A DNA stretch of 64,000 bases from a virus, in the IMG/VR virus record IMGVR_UViG_3300020037_007643. One strand, written 5' to 3'. The translations under genes and the position numbers were made by a program. Below are positions 15,147-60,317 of this stretch, in pieces. The notes below the pieces were generated by a model, which searched no databases, was not told the origin of the DNA, and saw nothing but the letters and a program-made list of their open reading frames with translations. Numbering within the stretch: the first letter of the stretch is position 1; the number at the start of each line of letters is the position of its first letter.

Positions 15147-16778
15147 TTAATAATTATTCTTGTCTTCTTCTTTATCTTTTATTTCATCTGAGACCGATGC
15201 TCCTATTGTGAGTGCAGTTGCCGCTGCTTCTGCTGCATTCTGTAATGCGATTATAATAACCTTAATAGAATCTATTATACCAGCTTCTATCATATCATCA
15301 ACAATCTTACCAGATATTGCATCATAACCAGAATCTTTATGTTCTTTCAGTCTCAAAGAGAGTTCTTTTTCCATTGCTTCAATATCGTTCTCACCAGCAT
15401 TTATCATGATTTTCTTGAGTGGCATCTTAATTGATTCCATGACAATATTGAAACCAATTTTTTCTTCTGCTGTCATTTCCTTACTTTCAAGTGACATACT
15501 GTCTGCAATACTAAACAACTCAGAGCCTCCACCTTTTACGAATCCTTCCTGAAGTGAATTTCTTGCCTCATCAATAGAGTCATCAATCTTCATTTTAAGA
15601 TATTTCATTCCGGCTTCTGTTAATGCTCCTATCTTTATTATACCAGCTCCTCCAGAGAGTTTTCCTATTCTTGACTCCATATTCTTAATATCAATGTTTG
15701 ATTTAAGTTCTGAAAGTTGAGTTTTAAGTTCTTCTATTCTATTATTAACAAGTTCTTTTGTATTTGGATTACCAATGATTACTGTTTCATTTCTAGATAC
15801 AACAATCTTCTTTGCAAAACCAACACTATCAAGTTCCGCTGTCTTCATTGGGTTCCCTGTTTCATCTGAGATTATCTTTGCACCAGTCAATATTTCAATA
15901 TCCTTAAGTATCTCTTTCTTTTCAACACCAAACCCTGGAGATTTAATTGCAACAACACGAAATCCTCCTCTCATATTATTACCCACGAGTGTCTCAAGCG
16001 CCTCACCATCAACATCTTCTGCTATAATAAGAAGTTCTCCAATACCAGATGTTGCCATTTTTTCTTGAATAGGAAGAAAGTCTTTGATTTGGATCATCTT
16101 TTTATCAACAATCATAACTGCAACATTATCGTATTCTGCCTCCATCTTATTTGGATTGTTGACCATCCACGGGTTAATCCAACCTCTCTCTATTTTCATT
16201 CCATCAACAATTTCAAGAGTAATACCACTACTCAAAGTAGACTCCTCTGCTTTGACGATTCCATCTTTACCCACCTTATCAAATGCTTCAGCTACAATAG
16301 CACCACATTCTTCTGATTCAGATGATATAGTAGCAACTGCTTTCAATTGATCATTTGTTTCAATCTTAGTAGCTCTTTTCTTTAGTTCTTCAATTACATA
16401 AGCAGCACCCTTTTCAATACCCTTTTTAATTGCAATAACATTAACACCCTTTTTTATCTGGCTAAAACCTTCATTAAAAATTGATTGTGTTAACACAATA
16501 GAAGCTGTTCTTGCTCCTCTTGCTTTATCGTTAGTTTTAATTGCAACATCTCTAACAATGTCTGCTCCCATATTCTGAAGACGATCCTTTAGTATAACTG
16601 TTCGTATGCCATCAAGGCCATCATTACTGATACTTGGTGGCATAATACCTCTATCAACAATGATATTTCTACCACGAGGGCCGAGTGTTACACCAGCTAG
16701 TTCAGCTACTGTATTTATACCTTTTTGTATTCGAGTTAATGCACCTTCCCCAAATGTAATTTCTTTATTTATAGCCAT
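15147..16778 (-). CDS. groEL: GroEL-like (Cpn60) chaperonin
   Basis: N-terminus ...VTLGPRGRNIIVDRG... aligns to GroEL VTLGPKGRNVVLDKSFG. 543 aa. Confidence 0.85.
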   Translation of the reverse strand: MAINKEITFGEGALTRIQKGINTVAELAGVTLGPRGRNIIVDRGIMPPSISNDGLDGIRTVILKDRLQNMGADIVRDVAIKTNDKARGARTASIVLTQSIFNEGFSQIKKGVNVIAIKKGIEKGAAYVIEELKKRATKIETNDQLKAVATISSESEECGAIVAEAFDKVGKDGIVKAEESTLSSGITLEIVDGMKIERGWINPWMVNNPNKMEAEYDNVAVMIVDKKMIQIKDFLPIQEKMATSGIGELLIIAEDVDGEALETLVGNNMRGGFRVVAIKSPGFGVEKKEILKDIEILTGAKIISDETGNPMKTAELDSVGFAKKIVVSRNETVIIGNPNTKELVNNRIEELKTQLSELKSNIDIKNMESRIGKLSGGAGIIKIGALTEAGMKYLKMKIDDSIDEARNSLQEGFVKGGGSELFSIADSMSLESKEMTAEEKIGFNIVMESIKMPLKKIMINAGENDIEAMEKELSLRLKEHKDSGYDAISGKIVDDMIEAGIIDSIKVIIIALQNAAEAAATALTIGASVSDEIKDKEEDKNNY

Positions 16779-29629: not shown

Positions 29630-29818
29630 TTAATATCTTTGACCTTCTAATGATAAGTCACCTGCATCAATAGCCATATCCCTACTTACATACCTAATCT
29701 CTTCTTCATTTTCACATCCACAATGAATCAACTCCGGCATATTTTGTTCTTCTTGTGAAAATAAACTTGGATCTTGTTGCCATTCTCCACACGCTCCACA
29801 TCTCTGTAAATTATTCAT
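29630..29818 (-). CDS. Small Cys-containing hypothetical protein
   Basis: 62-aa ORF. Confidence 0.35.
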   Translation of the reverse strand: MNNLQRCGACGEWQQDPSLFSQEEQNMPELIHCGCENEEEIRYVSRDMAIDAGDLSLEGQRY

Positions 29819-31565
29819 CGTCTATTTCATCCAACATACTTTTTGTAACAACAACCACTTCTTTCTCTTCTTTTTCTTCTGGAACTTGATACGATGATGG
29901 AGTTGTTGTACTTGTCATTTCATTCCATCCTTCGACTGCTTTCTTTTCATCCTCGTTTCGATCTGAGTAAGCGAATCTTTCATTTATCATCGTAAACCAT
30001 GCTGATAGTGTTTGTCCTGTCTTACGATTTTTTGCTAATGTTATTTTTGTATATTCAGTAAAATAACCCTTTGAATCTTTACCTGTATCTCTTTCTCTTT
30101 CTATTAAAAACACAAGGTCACTTTCTTGAGCTACCCCCGCGGTGTCCTTTATACTTTCAATATCCAATGCTCCGTTTGTTTTTCTTACGTGTACAGGTAG
30201 AACAATTATAACTTCTTCACTTAATGCTATTGTTTTTAAGTCTCTCACTATTTGTGTTACAAAAGTAGCATGGTTTTGTGACATATTCTTTCCTAGTATT
30301 CCATTTGTTTTTGGAAGAAGAAATCCGAGGTGGTCTATCACAACAACCTTTATATTAAATTTTTCTTTTGCTTCTTTAACTTTTGCCTCAACCCATGCAA
30401 CATTTCCTGATGTGTGTTTGGCTGGTATAACAGTAATATCATCTTCTGTCATTCCCATTGTTTTAAACTTCTTCCAAAGGTGACTTGGTAAAAGTTCATA
30501 AGAGAACCAAAGTACAGGTGCCTTTTTGGGTCCTCTGATAAAACTAAGTGTCCAATCTTGAGCAATAGACGATTTACCCTCACCTGTTCTTCCCGCAACC
30601 GAAACAAGGTCACCTGGTGAGGCACCGCCCATTATCAAGTCATCGAAACATTTCATTTCGAGTGGGTAAACATCATCTTGGTCAACAACTTGTTCAGAAG
30701 CTACAATTGAGATGTGTTTTACTTCGTCACTACCGTCAGAAAGGTGCTCGAGGAGGGCGTTATTCGGCTCATTTTTGACCGTAGAGGCCGTTAATGGAGT
30801 TTTTCGGGTCTCAATACCTTTTATGCTCCTAAACGATGCGTAGAGCTCTCCTGTGGACAATGGAGGGGTGTTTTTCTGGTTAGCTTTCACGATAATCTCC
30901 CATCCGTATGTCTCCCAGTGTGCAGGGTGTATTCTAGATAGAACCTTTCCAATAAACCTAGTTATTTCTTCATTGCGAACACCCTTGCCGTAACCTGGGT
31001 ATGATTCAAGAAGGAAGAATGCATCTGATTGTATTTCTTCAGAAGCTGGTTCTGATTTTTCTGTTTTAATCTCTACCTCTTTTTTTGTCCCACCCAATAG
31101 AAGAGCCCTAGTTTCTGGTGACATTTTTACAATAGGACAATCATTTAAAATTGAATATTCTCCTTTTGTTGTTTTTGAACCAACCGTTACACAGTACCCA
31201 CCTTCTGAACGTATATCCACTAATGGGAATATTCTAACTGCATTCTTGAATCCTTCTTCGTGCTGAAAATAAGCATGAACTCCACCAGACCCAGTACGGA
31301 CCTTAAATGTTTTATCTTTAATCAAATCAAAATCTGCACCATTCTCGAAATCAACTACAAGTAAATTACTTAACTTGCCAGTAGCTACACCAAGTTGCAT
31401 TGATGGATATATTTCAAGCCATTTTTTTATCTGTTCAAGATCAGCCTTTTCTGTCTGGTATTTCTTCCAAGGAATAAGAGGAACTTTATCTTCCCCTACG
31501 GGGATTAAAGACCACCCGATAGAAATTGCTCTCTCTGCTATTTTTAATAATTTTTCATTTATCAT
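29811..31565 (-). CDS. Primase-polymerase (prim-pol) N-terminal domain fused to a DnaB-like helicase
   Basis: N-terminal bifunctional primase/polymerase-like region. C-terminal Walker A VSVAGRTGEGKSS and Walker B VVVIDHLG. Confidence 0.75.
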   Translation of the reverse strand: MINEKLLKIAERAISIGWSLIPVGEDKVPLIPWKKYQTEKADLEQIKKWLEIYPSMQLGVATGKLSNLLVVDFENGADFDLIKDKTFKVRTGSGGVHAYFQHEEGFKNAVRIFPLVDIRSEGGYCVTVGSKTTKGEYSILNDCPIVKMSPETRALLLGGTKKEVEIKTEKSEPASEEIQSDAFFLLESYPGYGKGVRNEEITRFIGKVLSRIHPAHWETYGWEIIVKANQKNTPPLSTGELYASFRSIKGIETRKTPLTASTVKNEPNNALLEHLSDGSDEVKHISIVASEQVVDQDDVYPLEMKCFDDLIMGGASPGDLVSVAGRTGEGKSSIAQDWTLSFIRGPKKAPVLWFSYELLPSHLWKKFKTMGMTEDDITVIPAKHTSGNVAWVEAKVKEAKEKFNIKVVVIDHLGFLLPKTNGILGKNMSQNHATFVTQIVRDLKTIALSEEVIIVLPVHVRKTNGALDIESIKDTAGVAQESDLVFLIERERDTGKDSKGYFTEYTKITLAKNRKTGQTLSAWFTMINERFAYSDRNEDEKKAVEGWNEMTSTTTPSSYQVPEEKEEKEVVVVTKSMLDEIDDE

Positions 31566-31582
31566 GTATCTCGTTTGTTAAT

Positions 31583-31780
31583 TTATAAACTCGTAGATTT
31601 ACTATCTTTTTTCTCTTTACTTTTTATTTTTCTATCTTGTGATAATCCGTCATTCTTACAATGAATATCACAAAAATCACCAGCTGAAACTTGGTCTCCC
31701 CAAATAACGTTATAACAAAAACGACATCTCTTTACTGAATATGGACCCTTTTTGTCCACCAGAATATAATCACTTATCAT
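31583..31780 (-). CDS. Small zinc-binding protein
   Basis: CRFC...CDIHC. Confidence 0.35.
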   Translation of the reverse strand: MISDYILVDKKGPYSVKRCRFCYNVIWGDQVSAGDFCDIHCKNDGLSQDRKIKSKEKKDSKSTSL

Positions 31781-31956
31781 ATTTCATTTAATTTAATTAT
31801 TAAAAATTCTTATCAAACAAATAATCTTCAATCAACTCACGTCCAACATCATTCCACCATTGGACGTATAACTCAGCATCTGAGTCGTTATTAAAAGACA
31901 TTAAGATTTCATTTTCCTTAACTGTTGTCACTATTTCTTTTTTTAATTCTATTTTA

Positions 31957-32514
31957 TTATTCATTTCTTTTATTATTACCTTCTAATTTTATAATTTCAC
32001 AATCCTCAACAATTCTACCAACTATTCTATCTCCAACTTTTTCTTTTAATTCGTTAAGGTCCAGATTACTCGTATAAGTTGTTGGGTACATCCATTCGTA
32101 CCGGTCATTTATAATCTGAAACATTTTTACAATCACCGCCTCACTTGATTTTTCAACACCAACATCGTCTATAATTAAAAGTCCCTTATACTCACTTAAA
32201 TCTTTTAGAAACTGCATCATTTCAACCGTTGATTCATATTGGGGACTTTCGTAATGGGGGAGACCTGTAAATGTTCCCTTTATTGCTTCAACAATATCTA
32301 GGCCCCTCACTACGACACACGGAAGGCCGTGTTCCGTAACTAGGTTATAAATTGCATATGCAATGTATGTTTTCCCAACTCCTGTGTCACCAAAGATATA
32401 TAAACAAGGTGGTTCTCTTTTTTTTATAGATTCTTCGAGCATTTTATATATACCAGAATTTATATTTTTAACGGAAGAATCTTTGTACCGAGGTTTTATT
32501 TGTGTCTTAAGCAT
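31957..32514 (-). CDS. DnaC/IstB-like helicase-loader ATPase
   Basis: Walker A GDTGVGKTY and Walker B LLIIDDVG. Confidence 0.75.
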   Translation of the reverse strand: MLKTQIKPRYKDSSVKNINSGIYKMLEESIKKREPPCLYIFGDTGVGKTYIAYAIYNLVTEHGLPCVVVRGLDIVEAIKGTFTGLPHYESPQYESTVEMMQFLKDLSEYKGLLIIDDVGVEKSSEAVIVKMFQIINDRYEWMYPTTYTSNLDLNELKEKVGDRIVGRIVEDCEIIKLEGNNKRNE

Positions 32515-32515
32515 A

Positions 32516-33289
32516 TTAGTTTTTTAATTTTATAACATTTTTCATATAATCATTTTCATTGCGGTCTTTATGGACCCCTGCTGGGGATGACGAGCGGTCG
32601 TAATACTCAGTCAGGTCGTCATACCAAGATTGCTTGTTTAAAAAAGTGACTGGGTCTTTTATAAAACCTTTTTTCCAACGATCTGTTTTTTTTGCCTCTT
32701 TTATAAAACCAAGGATTTTATCTATATCTTTTTCAAAACCTTTTTTAAACCATTTTTCTCTTGCTTTTATTTTGTTCTCTTTCTTTGGGTATTCCAACCA
32801 AAATTGGTTAAAAGAATCTTCTTTTTTACCATCATTGCACATATCCTTATCATTAGTATAATGATTAGTATCTAGTATAATGATATGTTCACATTCGTGA
32901 ACGGCTCCCTGTTCGTTTTCGTGAACGGCTCCATTCATTTTTATGAACGGTCCGTTCGTTTCAATGAACAGGCTGTCTATCTTTTCTGTGAGTGAAACGA
33001 ACATCTTTTGGGCACTACCAGTACCAACCATTTTTGTTTTTATGTATCCTTCGTTCTCTATCCTTTTAAACCTTGGTGTTAATGCACTCTTGCTTTTGAT
33101 GCGAAGTAGGGGCATATCAGAAATAATGGTATTGTAATCAATCCATGTCATTCCTTCGATTCTTTTTTCTTCAATTGAGTCGTTTTTTGAAGAGCATATT
33201 GTTATTACCCAGTCCAAAATAGCACAATCTATTAAATTTAGTGTGCTTTTTTCTAAAACTTTTTGATTTATATTTATATTATATTTCAT
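32516..33289 (-). CDS. Hypothetical replication-associated protein (possible DnaD-like initiator partner)
   Basis: Immediately upstream of the DnaC-like gene in the same operon. Function inferred from position only. Confidence 0.45.
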   Translation of the reverse strand: MKYNININQKVLEKSTLNLIDCAILDWVITICSSKNDSIEEKRIEGMTWIDYNTIISDMPLLRIKSKSALTPRFKRIENEGYIKTKMVGTGSAQKMFVSLTEKIDSLFIETNGPFIKMNGAVHENEQGAVHECEHIIILDTNHYTNDKDMCNDGKKEDSFNQFWLEYPKKENKIKAREKWFKKGFEKDIDKILGFIKEAKKTDRWKKGFIKDPVTFLNKQSWYDDLTEYYDRSSSPAGVHKDRNENDYMKNVIKLKN

Positions 33290-38406: not shown

Positions 38407-38435
38407 TTGACTTCTTTAGTATAGGGGAGTATAAT
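38407..38435 (+). promoter_or_regulatory. Conserved promoter copy that drives the ORF-free structured region and the tRNA array
   Basis: TTGACTtctttagtataggggagTATAATggatttgtaag. Confidence 0.7.
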
Positions 38436-38441
38436 GGATTT

Positions 38442-39470
38442 GTAAGTGATGAGAATTAGTGGGATTCTGGTGAATGAAATAAACCAGGTTAAATCATATT
38501 ATGATTTATTTTGTTAAAGTCCCATTAGTTATGCGAGATTGGTATATACGGTATTACGTCAGTTTTCCAAACTGAAAAAAAGAGTCCAAGTCTCTTATCT
38601 CGCACATGTGTTACATTACTGTAACACTCTCATTATTGCAGTGGACAGAACAGCTAAGGCTTCTCTTATCCATTGTCGCAATAATGAGGATATGTGGTGT
38701 TGTCGTTATGATTGACTGAAGTTTTGTTTATATAGCACTCAGCAATATATCGTACTCACATATCTTGAGTCGATGATGTAATAGCAGCATTTCGGTCTCC
38801 AAAACCGTTCGTCCTAGTGCAAGTCTAGGTCGGCTCGCAGTTCATTAAAATTAAATGTTTCGCAGGCGGACAAGGCTTCTATAGAGCCCAGATAAAAATG
38901 GGGGCTGTAGTGAGGCACGGTATAGTTGTAACTTTGGAGTGAAACCAAGGGGTATACTTGAAACCGTGATGGGTAGCGCGTGGCCTGCACTTGGGCGTGA
39001 CGAATTTCGATTTAGTTGTTTATTTTAATTTTGCATAGCAGAGTATGATCATATCTCTTAAAAGTGATCTCTTGATAAACTCAAACCAGTCTATCGTTTC
39101 TCCGTTTTTCTCTTTCGCAGACTTCGGTCTCGTAACAGCCTAGCGGTGTGTACTCCACATAACTCTTGCAGTGTGGATGTACGCATAATATTTGCAAGAT
39201 AGCTTTCGGAGTTTTTTTATTATACGGAAGTGATAAAAAAATAAAATATGCTGGTGAACCAAGCGGAAACCGCTGATGTATATTCAGACAGGCAATGTAG
39301 ATTAAGTTAAGATACCGATTAAAGATTAGGGTGTAACTCCCTACACGTCCACCTGAAGGAAGATTGGGGCGCGGGTTGACTGACCCAATAATGTACACAA
39401 AGCTAGTACCAGAGAAAAGATTGCCGGTAGAAATACTTAAAGGCATATACCACAGGCTTAGCAAGCATGG
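38442..39470 (+). ncRNA. Candidate large structured noncoding RNA (about 1 kb, ORF-free, G+C visibly higher than the flanks)
   Basis: Only spurious ORFs, and G+C visibly above the flanks (no composition computed). Several tetraloop hairpins are present (AGAC-TTCG-GTCT, AGCGG-AAA-CCGCT, GTGTA-ACTCCC-TACAC, GGGT-TGACTG-ACCC). It lies directly downstream of a consensus promoter and upstream of tRNA-Pro. Confidence 0.35.
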
Positions 39471-39476
39471 TTCACC

Positions 39477-39550
39477 ACAGAGATTGTTGAAATGGTATCA
39501 TATGCCCCTTGGACGGGTAAGTCGGGAGTTCGATTCTCTCATCTCTGACC
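39477..39550 (+). tRNA. tRNA-Pro (anticodon UGG)
   Basis: Acceptor CAGAGAT/ATCTCTG, anticodon stem TGCCC/GGGTA, loop CTTGGAC, T-arm GGGAG-TTCGATT-CTCTC, encoded CCA. The D-stem is weak. Confidence 0.5.
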
Positions 39551-39575
39551 ATTATTAATTAATTTTTAAAACAAT

Positions 39576-39746
39576 ATGGAAAATAACGAAAATGTTGTAG
39601 TTGAAGAAACTGTAGAAGTTGTAGACGCACAGCCTGCAATGGAAGAAGTTACTGAAACTGTTGATTCTGTTCAAGAAGCTGTAGAGTCTATTGATTCTAT
39701 GCCTGAAGATCCACAGGATGCAGTGAAGTGTGATTCTTGTGAATAG
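39576..39746 (+). CDS. Small acidic peptide (56 aa), questionable
   Basis: Runs ATG to TAG and reads MENNENVVVEETVEVVDAQPAMEEV... It lies between tRNA-Pro and tRNA-Met. Confidence 0.3.
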   Translation: MENNENVVVEETVEVVDAQPAMEEVTETVDSVQEAVESIDSMPEDPQDAVKCDSCE

Positions 39747-39754
39747 TTAGTTTT

Positions 39755-39774
39755 TAGGTAGAGAAATCTACCTA
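39755..39774 (+). other. Perfect 8-bp hairpin with a GAAA tetraloop
   Basis: TAGGTAGA-GAAA-TCTACCTA, immediately 5' of tRNA-Met. Likely an RNA processing or structural element. Confidence 0.45.
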
Positions 39775-39777
39775 AAT

Positions 39778-39849
39778 AGCGGGCGGGGGGTCAGGGATCC
39801 CACAAGGCTCATAACTTTGAAAAATCCAGATCGTTACTGGGGCCCGCTA
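39778..39849 (+). tRNA. tRNA-Met or Ile2 (anticodon CAU)
   Basis: Acceptor AGCGGGC/GCCCGCT, anticodon stem CAAGG/CTTTG, loop CTCATAA, T-arm TCCAG-ATCGTTA-CTGGG. The T-loop is non-canonical (A54), which lowers confidence. Confidence 0.45.
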
Positions 39850-39869
39850 CTAGGTGAGTAATAAAAATT

Positions 39870-40292
39870 ATGAAAAAGAAATGTTATAAATGTAATTTAA
39901 ATTTATCAATTGATAAATTTAGTAAAAATAAATCTAAAAAAGACGGGTTAGGTTCTATGTGTAAAAAATGTTGGAATGATTATTATAAACATATTTACTA
40001 TTTGAACGGTAATGAAAAATCTAGACTTAAAATAAATAATAAAAAACGTTCAGAGTATATTCATAGAATAGTAAAAGAAGCTAAAAATAAACCATGTTTT
40101 GATTGTGGAATTATATATCCTTATTATGTTATGGATTTTGATCATATACGTGATAAAAAATTTCTAGTGTCTAATGCGGTTAATATAAAATGTTCCATAA
40201 AAATTATTTTAGAAGAGATTAAAAAATGTGAAGTTGTTTGTTCTAATTGTCACAGGATAAGAACTTTTAAAAGATCAAAAAATAGTGGGTAG
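39870..40292 (+). CDS. HNH endonuclease
   Basis: Cys-rich N-terminus, DFDHI...N and CSNCHRIR (His-Me finger with CxxC zinc ligands). Confidence 0.65.
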   Translation: MKKKCYKCNLNLSIDKFSKNKSKKDGLGSMCKKCWNDYYKHIYYLNGNEKSRLKINNKKRSEYIHRIVKEAKNKPCFDCGIIYPYYVMDFDHIRDKKFLVSNAVNIKCSIKIILEEIKKCEVVCSNCHRIRTFKRSKNSG

Positions 40293-40354
40293 TGTAATGG
40301 TAACACGATTGTCTTTGAAACAATAGATTCTAGGTCCGACCCCTAGCCCGCTAG
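40283..40354 (+). tRNA. tRNA-Gln (anticodon UUG)
   Basis: Acceptor TAGTGGG/CCCGCTA (one G-U), D-stem GTGT/ACAC with loop AATGGTA, anticodon stem ATTGT/ACAAT, loop CTTTGAA, T-arm CTAGG-TCCGACC-CCTAG, G73 and encoded CCA. The 5' end overlaps the stop codon of the HNH gene. Confidence 0.55.
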
Positions 40355-40358
40355 CCAT

Positions 40359-40437
40359 GCGTATGATGTTCAATGGTTGGACAGTAGACTGTAAATCTAT
40401 GCCTTCGGGAGAGTTTGTTCGATTCAAACCATACGCA
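40359..40437 (+). tRNA. tRNA-Tyr (anticodon GUA), class II (bacterial type)
   Basis: Acceptor GCGTATG/CATACGC, anticodon stem GTAGA/TCTAT, loop CTGTAAA, a 12-nt variable arm GCCTTCGGGAGA, and T-arm GTTTG-TTCGATT-CAAAC. Confidence 0.65.
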
Positions 40438-40464
40438 CTGTTTTATAAATATAATATGTAAAAT

Positions 40465-41165: not shown

Positions 41166-41240
41166 GCCCCTGTAGACCAACTGGAAGGAGTCGCACGTCT
41201 TAGAAACGTGATAGTATGTGTTCGAATCACATCGGGGGTA
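41166..41240 (+). tRNA. tRNA with anticodon UAG (formally Leu, CUA/CUG), class I architecture
   Basis: Acceptor GCCCCTG/CGGGGGT (two G-U pairs), perfect anticodon stem CACGT/ACGTG, loop CTTAGAA, 5-nt variable loop, T-arm ATGTG-TTCGAAT-CACAT, A73. Confidence 0.5.
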
Positions 41241-41261
41241 CTAGTTTTTAAATTTAAATAT

Positions 41262-41335
41262 CCGCCCATATCCCAATCGGCAGAGGAAGTGGACTTAAAC
41301 CCCACACAGTGCTAGTTCGAATCTAGCTGGGCGGA
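41262..41335 (+). tRNA. tRNA with anticodon UAA (formally Leu, UUA/UUG), class I architecture
   Basis: Acceptor CCGCCCA/TGGGCGG, anticodon stem GTGGA/CCCAC (A-C at the loop-closing pair), loop CTTAAAC, 5-nt variable loop, T-arm GCTAG-TTCGAAT-CTAGC, A73. Confidence 0.5.
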
Positions 41336-41336
41336 C

Positions 41337-41410
41337 AATGTAGAGAAACCAAATTTGATACTCATGCGGTCAGAGCTATGAGCTGACAAGAATGGTATTG
41401 CTCTACATTA
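41337..41410 (+). other. Long hairpin with a perfect 9-bp stem between two tRNAs
   Basis: AATGTAGAG, a 55-nt interior, then CTCTACATT. The interior has an AGCT-ATG-AGCT sub-hairpin. No T-loop, so it is not a canonical tRNA. Confidence 0.4.
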
Positions 41411-41411
41411 C

Positions 41412-41486
41412 CGGTCTGTAGTCCAATTTGGTAGAGACACTCCCCTCAAAAGGGATCGAGTACTGGTTCAAATCCAGTCAGACCGA
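41412..41486 (+). tRNA. tRNA with anticodon CAA (formally Leu, UUG), class I architecture
   Basis: Acceptor CGGTCTG/CAGACCG, anticodon stem (C)TCCC/GGGA(T), loop CTCAAAA, 5-nt variable loop, T-arm ACTGG-TTCAAAT-CCAGT, A73. Confidence 0.5.
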
Positions 41487-60099: not shown

Positions 60100-60244
60100 A
60101 ACACCACTAAGTTATCATATGATAACTATCATAGTGGTAAAAATTAAAAAGGTCTGAGTATCATTACTAATCCATGCGTGAACATCTAATAGTAAAACTG
60201 GAATGATTTTATGTAACGTTCCACTTTCGTTACCCTTTTCAATG

Positions 60245-60317
60245 TCGGTCATCTTGGATTTGAACCAAGGACTTCCTCGGTATAAGCAAGGCACTCTACC
60301 AACTGAGTTAATGACCG
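60245..60317 (-). tRNA. tRNA-Ile (anticodon UAU)
   Basis: Reverse complement has acceptor CGGTCAT/ATGACCG, D-arm ACTC-AGTTGGTA-GAGT, anticodon stem CCTTG/CGAGG, loop CTTATAC, T-arm CTTGG-TTCAAAT-CCAAG. Confidence 0.65.

Follow-up and report, generated by a model that had tools for sequence, protein, structure and literature searches.

Leucine tRNAs without a long variable arm

Leucine tRNAs that lack the long variable arm of class II (the type I, or short, format) are known from animal mitochondria, where they are charged by a leucyl-tRNA synthetase (LeuRS) that does not need the arm; mitochondrial tRNAs have weakened interactions between their D and T loops and a synthetase of their own. For bacteria, Fan 2019 described a natural type I tRNA-Leu(CAA) in Streptomyces coelicolor, with the 5-nt variable loop ACAGC (PMC6614811). 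The single LeuRS of this species charges the type I tRNA at about half the efficiency obtained with type II and does not charge human mt-tRNA-Leu(UUR) (PMC6614811). In vitro, the E. coli enzyme left the S. coelicolor type I tRNA-Leu(CAA) uncharged (PMC6614811), so charging of the short format depends on the LeuRS and cannot be assumed for every host. In M. tuberculosis, long variable loops are confined to tRNA-Leu-2, -3 and -5 (MenT3 paper, PMC11541572), which implies two short-loop tRNA-Leu in that species.

The DNA analysed here, referred to as the window, is a 64,000-nt stretch of viral sequence (IMG/VR record IMGVR_UViG_3300020037_007643; 32.9% GC) that carries three type I tRNAs with leucine anticodons. 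The original prediction for this locus held that bacterial tRNA-Leu is class II. That premise was too broad, as the type I format is charged by LeuRS in Streptomyces coelicolor (PMC6614811) and is widespread on Actinomycetota chromosomes. The rarity it implied also has to be given up, since the format is common in phages, Felix O1-like coliphages with the same trio of anticodons included. The window trio is an ordinary new example of the already known type I tRNA-Leu and does not represent a new kind of tRNA. With high confidence, we read it as three functional phage-encoded leucine tRNAs that would be processed by the host and charged by LeuRS.

Gene calls and fold of the three tRNAs

ARAGORN reports 11 tRNAs in the window. 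Three consecutive + strand calls are tRNA-Leu, with tag spanning 41166-41241, taa 41262-41336 and caa 41412-41487. Each of the three finishes with a C past the discriminator A73; the tRNA bodies accordingly stop at 41240, 41335 and 41486, and C74 alone of CCA is encoded. Within these limits, tRNA-Leu(UAG) occupies 41166..41240 on the + strand (75 nt to A73) and combines a G1.U72 pair, U8 and A9 with the D arm GACCAACTGGAAGGAGTCG, the variable loop ATAGT and the T loop TTCGAAT. tRNA-Leu(UAA), at 41262..41335 (+ strand, 74 nt), has C1-G72, U8 and A9, the D arm TCCCAATCGGCAGAGGAA, the variable loop ACAGT and the T loop TTCGAAT, and tRNA-Leu(CAA), at 41412..41486 (+ strand, 75 nt), has C1-G72, U8 and A9, the D arm GTCCAATTTGGTAGAGACA, the variable loop CGAGT and the T loop TTCAAAT. 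Each gene is recovered by ARAGORN, by Rfam and by R1, a covariance model of type I tRNA-Leu that is introduced below.

All seven acceptor-stem pairs form in each of the three tRNAs according to the cloverleaf parse. Scores against RF00005 (Rfam) are 50.3 bits for UAG, 48.9 for UAA and 56.0 for CAA, with a gathering threshold of 29 and E <= 2e-7 in 64 kb, and are thus far past chance; the single-sequence thermodynamic z-scores are modest (-0.5 to -2.6). The minimum free energy (MFE) folds of Leu(UAG) and Leu(UAA) return the same cloverleaf without a hidden long arm, and that of Leu(CAA) deviates in the anticodon arm only. Infernal alignments of the trio to RF00005 and to R1 place no insertion at the variable region. 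This region measures 5 nt in all three and contains no stem, which falls within the 4-7 nt of the short format and outside the long arm of at least 10 nt with a stem that characterizes class II. The anticodons are of the leucine type (NAG or YAA) and lie in 7-nt loops with U33 and a purine at position 37 (CTTAGAA, CTTAAAC and CTCAAAA).

The structural description in the original prediction is therefore upheld throughout. ARAGORN and Rfam bear out its three cloverleaves at 41166-41486, the cloverleaf parse reproduces the anticodon loops, the T loops and A73 that it had listed, and ARAGORN and the parse agree on its 5-nt variable loops. It had also named mis-folding as a possible error; ARAGORN, Infernal and the MFE folds yield neither a concealed long arm nor another anticodon register, and both are ruled out. 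Nonsense suppressor tRNAs, which would carry CUA, UUA or UCA, are likewise excluded, as UAG, UAA and CAA are sense leucine anticodons. With these anticodons and with long ORFs that are intact under table 11, its rejection of stop-codon recoding was sound.

Probable leucine identity

The core of all three tRNAs is of the leucine type, with U8-A14, A15-U48, G18G19 followed by N-A-G-A, a 3-bp D stem bearing a C13.A22 mismatch, and A73. The N-A-G-A that follows G18G19 has the same register as in E. coli tRNA-Leu, and the three T loops all have U54 U55 C56 ... A58. These core positions are near-invariant among 117 phage and 87 chromosomal members of the family, some of the columns being set by the search pattern.

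Class II tRNA-Leu, as found in E. coli and phage T4, shares with the trio A73, A14, A15-U48, G18G19 and leucine anticodons, as well as the 3-bp D stem with its 13.22 mismatch and the D-loop register GG-N-A-G-A. The two differ in the variable region, which forms no stem-loop in the trio but is 11-19 nt long in most sampled phage genes of class II. They also differ at positions 9 and 13, where the trio has A9 and C13 and class II typically has G9 and G13. Unlike animal mitochondrial tRNA-Leu, the trio keeps the full bacterial tertiary core, including G18G19 and TTCRAAT T loops. Membership in the mitochondrial class was rejected on these canonical features and on the phage-genome context.

The covariance model R1 was built from 87 chromosomal type I tRNA-Leu genes and contains no phage genes. 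It gives 83.8 bits to UAA, 72.5 to UAG and 66.3 to CAA against 45.2 for the next-best window tRNA, thereby parting the trio from all other window tRNAs by more than 20 bits; R1 and the family sets were collected by a pattern derived from the window tRNAs, in which GG-N-AGA, C32 U33, A35, U48 and the T loop are forced.

SerRS requires both the long arm and G73 (PMC7609411). The trio has A73 and no long arm, and its 3-70 pairs are C-G, G-C and G-C, so that G3:U70, the alanine determinant, is absent; identity as tRNA-Ala or tRNA-Ser on a leucine anticodon was rejected on these grounds. Most other synthetases read the anticodon, which in each of the three tRNAs is that of leucine. Given the absence of G3:U70, the dependence of SerRS on the arm and G73, and the reading of the anticodon by most other synthetases, LeuRS is the only plausible charging enzyme. 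[quoted passage not shown] The trio most likely consists of genuine leucine tRNAs, and by analogy with these systems and with S. coelicolor its members are predicted, as the most likely outcome, to be leucylated by LeuRS and used for leucine codons.

Codon meaning and decoding

Leucine codons in the window ORFs (n=1219) are divided among TTA (34%), CTT (28%), CTA (15%), TTG (11%), CTC (9%) and CTG (2%). Their meaning was assessed in the phage GroEL, RecA/UvsX and SNF2 helicase, each aligned with 94-113 homologues, all below 70% identity, and columns in which at least 80% of homologues had one residue were taken as informative. GroEL alone, for which the homologues are cellular, offers too few UUA, UUG and CUA sites, and the three proteins were therefore pooled. 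In this test, which mixes decoding by phage and host tRNAs and in which many RecA and helicase homologues are standard-code translations from related phages, leucine-conserved columns hold 13 of 14 TTA, 3 of 4 TTG and 5 of 6 CTA codons (21/24 pooled), compared with 20/24 for CTT. UUA, UUG and CUA fall on leucine columns at the same rate as CUU, CUC and CUG. There is no sign that leucine codons are reassigned.

Of the two readings that the original prediction had allowed, unusually formatted leucine isoacceptors are supported by the codon columns, the set of tertiary contacts suited to LeuRS, the absence of G3:U70 and the R1 scores; altered identity is not supported. Under altered identity, the trio would carry an amino acid other than leucine, and infection would bring a partial reassignment of UUA, UUG and CUN. 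Yeast mitochondria provide a precedent, as tRNAs there that have leucine anticodons but no leucine features carry Thr or Ala (PMC7609411). The loss of the arm also strips one class II hallmark from the trio. Against this stand the 21 of 24 informative codons on leucine-conserved columns, the leucine-type D arm and 15-48 pair, the separation by R1, the missing alanine and serine determinants, and leucine anticodons presented to synthetases that mostly read them. Taken together, these observations make altered identity highly improbable. The window genes can be annotated as tRNA-Leu(UAG), tRNA-Leu(UAA) and tRNA-Leu(CAA), and no change in the genetic code is implied.

As ordinary leucine acceptors, the three tRNAs would be transcribed together with the + strand tRNA cluster and processed by host enzymes, which would also complete the CCA end because the window genes encode C74 only. 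The host leucyl-tRNA synthetase would then charge them with leucine by reading the discriminator/acceptor end and the tertiary core, bacterial LeuRS ignoring the anticodon and, in the systems studied, the long arm. This core, made up of U8-A14, A15-U48, G18G19 together with the T loop and the geometry of the D loop, is retained in all three genes. The UAA and CAA species would decode UUA and UUG, and the UAG species would decode CUA and CUG and possibly all CUN codons through U34 wobble. On this scheme, the trio would cover at least 60%, and up to 100%, of the leucine codons of the phage. Elsewhere in the codon table, ATA makes up 50% of isoleucine codons, alongside a tRNA-Ile(UAU), and AGA makes up 64% of arginine codons, alongside a tRNA-Arg(UCU). 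The trio fits a bias toward A-ending codons that is also served by Ile-UAU, Arg-UCU, Gly-UCC, Pro-UGG and Gln-UUG.

The short format on bacterial chromosomes

A scan of 185,579 species genomes with the pattern GG-N-AGA, 9 nt, CT-N-A-R, 11 nt, T, 5 nt, TTCRANT returned at least 120 loci. About 95 of the matches listed belong to Actinomycetota, a taxon mix that, like that of the viral matches listed, may follow database order. Many of the Actinomycetota loci lie on megabase contigs or complete chromosomes, including those of Nocardia, Mycobacterium, Bifidobacterium, Arthrobacter and a 1.33-Mb Ca. Planktophila. Among the matches listed, 91 are single-tRNA loci, and the genes are 73-74-nt tRNA-Leu, for the most part with the anticodons UAA (73) and CAA (34). 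Chromosomal tRNA-Leu(UAA) genes of Corynebacterium and Nocardioides match the 5' half of the window Leu(UAA) at 91-94% identity. Judged from these gene sequences, type I tRNA-Leu is common on Actinomycetota chromosomes and is not a Streptomyces rarity.

In the type I tRNAs of S. coelicolor and other Actinomycetota, as in the window trio, a bacterial-type cloverleaf with a 5-nt variable loop is combined with a canonical G18G19 and T loop, U8-A14 and A73. Between the Actinomycetota genes and the window genes the D arm hardly differs, TCCCAATCGGCAGAGGAA being common to the window Leu(UAA) and Nocardioides, whereas position 48 is U in the trio and C in the S. coelicolor type I tRNA. The Actinomycetota genes are chromosomal, whereas those of the window are phage-borne at 33% GC. 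In addition, all three window isoacceptors are type I, the CUN reader (UAG) included, in contrast to the chromosomal single-gene cases, which among the matches listed are mostly UAA or CAA and coexist with type II CUN readers.

The short format in viruses and cultured phages

When the same pattern was applied to IMG/VR, ARAGORN found 159 short-arm and 22 long-arm tRNA-Leu at the matches listed (at least 120). Every tRNA-Ser in those loci has the long arm (58/58, among the matches listed). In a sample blind to leucine, for which viral loci were chosen by a tRNA-Arg(UCU) pattern, short-arm genes account for 9/53 tRNA-Leu (17%) and occur in 6/36 of the Leu-bearing loci. A set of 117 non-identical phage sequences of the U8-A9 flavour keeps the cloverleaf, with 97.6% of cells paired and compensatory changes at 18/20 pairs. 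Its signature comprises U8, A9, C13.A22, A14, A15, A46-G47-U48 and A73, some of these columns being fixed by the pattern or filter. The Leu(UAG) D-arm motif TAGACCAANTGGNAGGAGTC occurs on 63 viral contigs; their GC content spans 29-66%, and many are 100-340 kb long. On all of these contigs the motif lies within a short-arm tRNA-Leu, with the anticodons CAA, UAG, GAG, CAG and UAA.

Cultured phages carry the format as well. In phages of Streptomyces, Mycobacterium, Enterococcus, Lactobacillus, Prochlorococcus and Escherichia, short-arm genes are annotated as plain tRNA-Leu. The window Leu(UAG) matches 75-76-nt genes annotated as tRNA-Leu in Streptomyces and Gordonia phages, and for the window Leu(UAA) the matches are short tRNA-Leu genes in four phages, namely Enterococcus phage EFDG1, Lactobacillus phage Iacchus, cyanophage P-RSM6 and Erwinia phage Prophecy. 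Prophecy has three short tRNA-Leu (CAA, AAG and UAA), all unannotated. Its Leu(CAA), used as a query, retrieved 417 phage records, including 120 Escherichia, 75 Salmonella, 22 Shigella and 106 Mycobacterium phages, in alignments that are continuous across the variable region.

Escherichia phage vB_EcoM_AYO145A (Felixounavirus) and Shigella phage Sf13 each encode Leu(UAG), Leu(CAA) and Leu(UAA) of 75-76 nt, the same anticodon set as in the window. Their variable loops measure 5-7 nt, and the genes sit in a tRNA cluster with long-arm tRNA-Ser and tRNA-Tyr. The Sf13 genes were annotated as tRNA-Leu by tRNAscan-SE, and for the trio of the sibling phage Sf14 the tRNAscan-SE isotype scores place leucine first (67.4, 49.1 and 60.2), with leucine only narrowly above Ile2 and Lys for the UAG species (PMC12482277). 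In the trios of Felix O1-like and Moogle-like phages and of Prophecy, the CAA and UAA species share U8 A9 and the D arm NCCCAAYTGGCAGAGGN with the window. These phages are unrelated to the window phage, which has no protein or DNA relatives among cultured phages. Unlike the window genes, the coliphage leucine genes encode CCA, and their Leu(UAG) has a class II-like D arm with G9; the window Leu(UAG) instead carries the GACCAACTGG-AGGAGTC arm found in Streptomyces phages.

The recurrence of the format across these phages also bears on whether the trio could be decaying or non-functional tRNA-like relics that carry leucine anticodons by chance. RefSeq lists the AYO145A homologue of Leu(UAG) as tRNA-Pseudo-TAG, and the modest z-scores of the trio point in the same direction. 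The trio nonetheless has stems with perfect or almost perfect pairing and retains every universal tertiary position. Moreover, the format is maintained with compensatory changes across the 117 phage sequences, in phages of 29-66% GC, and full isoacceptor sets of the short format recur in several phage lineages. We thus consider it very unlikely that the genes are relics, and functional leucine tRNAs remain the preferred reading.

Within the limited full-text collection that was searched, no description of the phage distribution of type I tRNA-Leu was found. The wider value of the locus lies in the under-described breadth of the short format in phages and in the question of LeuRS compatibility. 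One tension is apparent among the cultured phages: E. coli LeuRS does not charge the Streptomyces tRNA in vitro, although complete type I sets are found in coliphages and in an Erwinia phage.

Why the arm is missing

The simplest account of the short format is tolerance, with the arm lost in tRNA-Leu and kept in tRNA-Ser. An alternative is that the arm-less format is an adaptation, allowing escape from host toxins or nucleases, or from phage shut-off, that pick class II tRNAs by the arm. Leucine decoding would then outlast inactivation of host tRNA-Leu, which is compatible with the trio being ordinary leucine acceptors. Several effectors have been brought into this argument. AbiEii appears to favour class II tRNAs (bioRxiv 10.64898/2026.01.19.700257), and the eukaryotic SLFN11 and SLFN14 are listed as acting on type II tRNAs or tRNA-Leu. 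MenT3 has also been counted among the arm-reading effectors that suggest adaptation; however, it discriminates against tRNA-Leu (PMC11541572), and no known effector picks tRNA-Leu by its arm.

The distribution of the format can be read in both ways. Among the matches listed, every tRNA-Ser in the same loci is long, so the arm is kept where the synthetase needs it, but a loss restricted to tRNA-Leu is equally explained by tolerance, since SerRS needs the arm and LeuRS does not. Phages stretch the short format to CUN-reading anticodons, while chromosomal single-gene type I tRNAs are mostly UAA or CAA among the matches listed, which would suit an adaptation; yet the same format serves as housekeeping genes on actinobacterial chromosomes. 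Relatives of the window phage encode an RNA ligase and PNKP, a T4-like tRNA repair pair that suggests pressure on tRNAs, but neither was seen in the corresponding region of the window. On balance, we regard the adaptive explanation as unlikely.

The broader proposition, that a mobile type I leucine scaffold carrying every leucine anticodon in phages of 29-66% GC is a widespread, so far undescribed phage strategy for escaping arm-reading effectors, is similarly unlikely. If true, it would require LeuRS of the E. coli type to accept natural type I tRNA-Leu for charging in vivo, which would contradict the view that the Streptomyces LeuRS alone among prokaryotic enzymes charges this format. Cultured phages of the Felix O1 group make both LeuRS acceptance and protection from toxins through arm loss directly testable.

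The surrounding tRNA cluster and phage genome

The upstream part of the same tRNA cluster extends over 38533..40438 on the + strand (ARAGORN and Rfam) and contains Gly(UCC), a Trp(CCA)-like tRNA at 38767-38837, a tmRNA-like RNA at 38993-39354, Pro(UGG), Met(CAU), Gln(UUG) and Tyr(GUA), the last with a short 12-nt arm. ARAGORN in tmRNA mode gave no match in the tmRNA-like region, lowered thresholds included. Just 5' of the first tRNA, at 38407..38435 (+ strand), lies the promoter-like sequence TTGACT-17-TATAAT, with 11/12 matches. On the basis of this consensus match, transcription of the tRNA unit may begin there, in a region where the count of promoter-like sites is not above shuffle expectation. 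Between Leu(UAA) and Leu(CAA), a 75-nt spacer at 41337..41411 (+ strand) folds into a long imperfect hairpin (MFE -22.3 kcal/mol, z = -3.76 vs shuffles) and has no Rfam match. The spacer may serve in RNA processing or represent a degenerate tRNA, and its membership in the unit is uncertain.

The phage-genome context is provided by GroEL, UvsX/RecA, SbcCD, primase-helicase and endolysin domains, and Pfam searches of ten ORFs returned peptidoglycan-binding, amidase, AAA ATPase and COOH-NH2 ligase domains only. No relatives of the window were found among cultured phages by blastn with the 4-kb cluster or by tblastn with the helicase and RecA; the tRNA genes alone match. A Patescibacteria host was considered, as the nearest cellular GroEL homologues are so named, and rejected because an identity of about 45% is too weak. 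Patescibacteria are also absent among the genome matches listed for the type I leucine pattern (at least 120), and no WhiB motif was found in six-frame translations of the window. A relative of the window phage, a 95-kb contig whose helicase is 56% identical (L248), carries short-arm Leu(CAA) and Leu(UAG) adjoining a long-arm tRNA-Ser.

Short-arm tRNA-Leu genes in other genomes

Among the species genomes, contigs of Planctomycetota and Acidobacteriota MAGs (L127, L133, L159 and L195) carry multi-gene clusters of short-arm tRNA-Leu with differing anticodons, and a few further genome loci among the matches listed hold 25–34 tRNAs each. Instead of housekeeping genes, these clusters and loci may represent prophages or arrays of tRNAs. 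The short format may lead to uneven annotation: in the cluster of Escherichia phage vB_EcoM_AYO145A, RefSeq labels the short-arm tRNA-Leu(UAG) (L435 2415–2489, equal to NC_028825 28653–28727) as tRNA-Pseudo-TAG, and the remaining two short-arm Leu genes as tRNA-Leu.

Other RNAs of the tRNA cluster

Between tRNA-Leu(UAA) and tRNA-Leu(CAA) lies a 75-nt spacer (41337–41411, plus strand) that forms a long, stable hairpin, at -22.3 kcal/mol and with z = -3.76 relative to shuffled sequences. An Rfam search gave no match for this spacer, which may be either a signal for processing or the remnant of a tRNA. Further upstream, a tmRNA-like RNA lies inside the cluster on the plus strand (38993–39354), covering the full Rfam model RF00023 with a score of 46.3 bits (threshold 47; E ~2e-17). 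Its 5' end, GGGCGUG, pairs with the 3' CACGUCC, including G3.U70, and is followed at the 3' side by ACC; its T arm is GGGUGUAACUCCC. ARAGORN made no call for this RNA, lowered thresholds included. The element is probably a phage-encoded tmRNA, a candidate slightly below the curated cut-off.

A twelfth, Trp(CCA)-like tRNA was identified at 38767–38837 (plus strand) with Rfam RF00005 at 45.3 bits, where ARAGORN gave no call. Its anticodon loop, CTCCAAA, indicates Trp (CCA); the D loop is without GG and the T loop reads TGCAAGT. The tRNA-Tyr(GUA) at 40359–40438 (plus strand; 79 nt to A73) has a shortened variable arm of 12 nt, GCCTTCGGGAGA, and its call is separated by 1 base from that of tRNA-Gln, which ends at 40357 with the encoded CCA included. 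Among the matches listed for viral loci, tRNA-Tyr arms span 9 to 19 nt, and of about 250 tRNA-Ser genes two have arms shorter than 14 nt.

RNA repair, GroEL and codon usage

In the phage's relatives L245 (1318–3668), L247 (4440–7518) and L249 (5120–7553), an RNA ligase (PF09414) and a polynucleotide kinase-phosphatase (HAD_PNKP/AAA_33) adjoin the primase-helicase and constitute a T4-like tRNA repair pair; neither was found in the equivalent region of the window, 29811–33289. The phage encodes a full-length GroEL (15147–16778, minus strand), and its relative L250 carries Cpn60 together with Cpn10. The closest named cellular homologues of this GroEL belong to Patescibacteria at ~45% identity, too weak for their assignment as host.

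The UAU anticodon on tRNA-Ile is uncommon among bacteria. The window phage carries a tRNA-Ile(UAU) at 60244–60317 (minus strand), and ATA makes up 50% of its Ile codons; a tRNA-Arg(UCU) lies nearby, and the corresponding codon, AGA, accounts for 64% of Arg codons.
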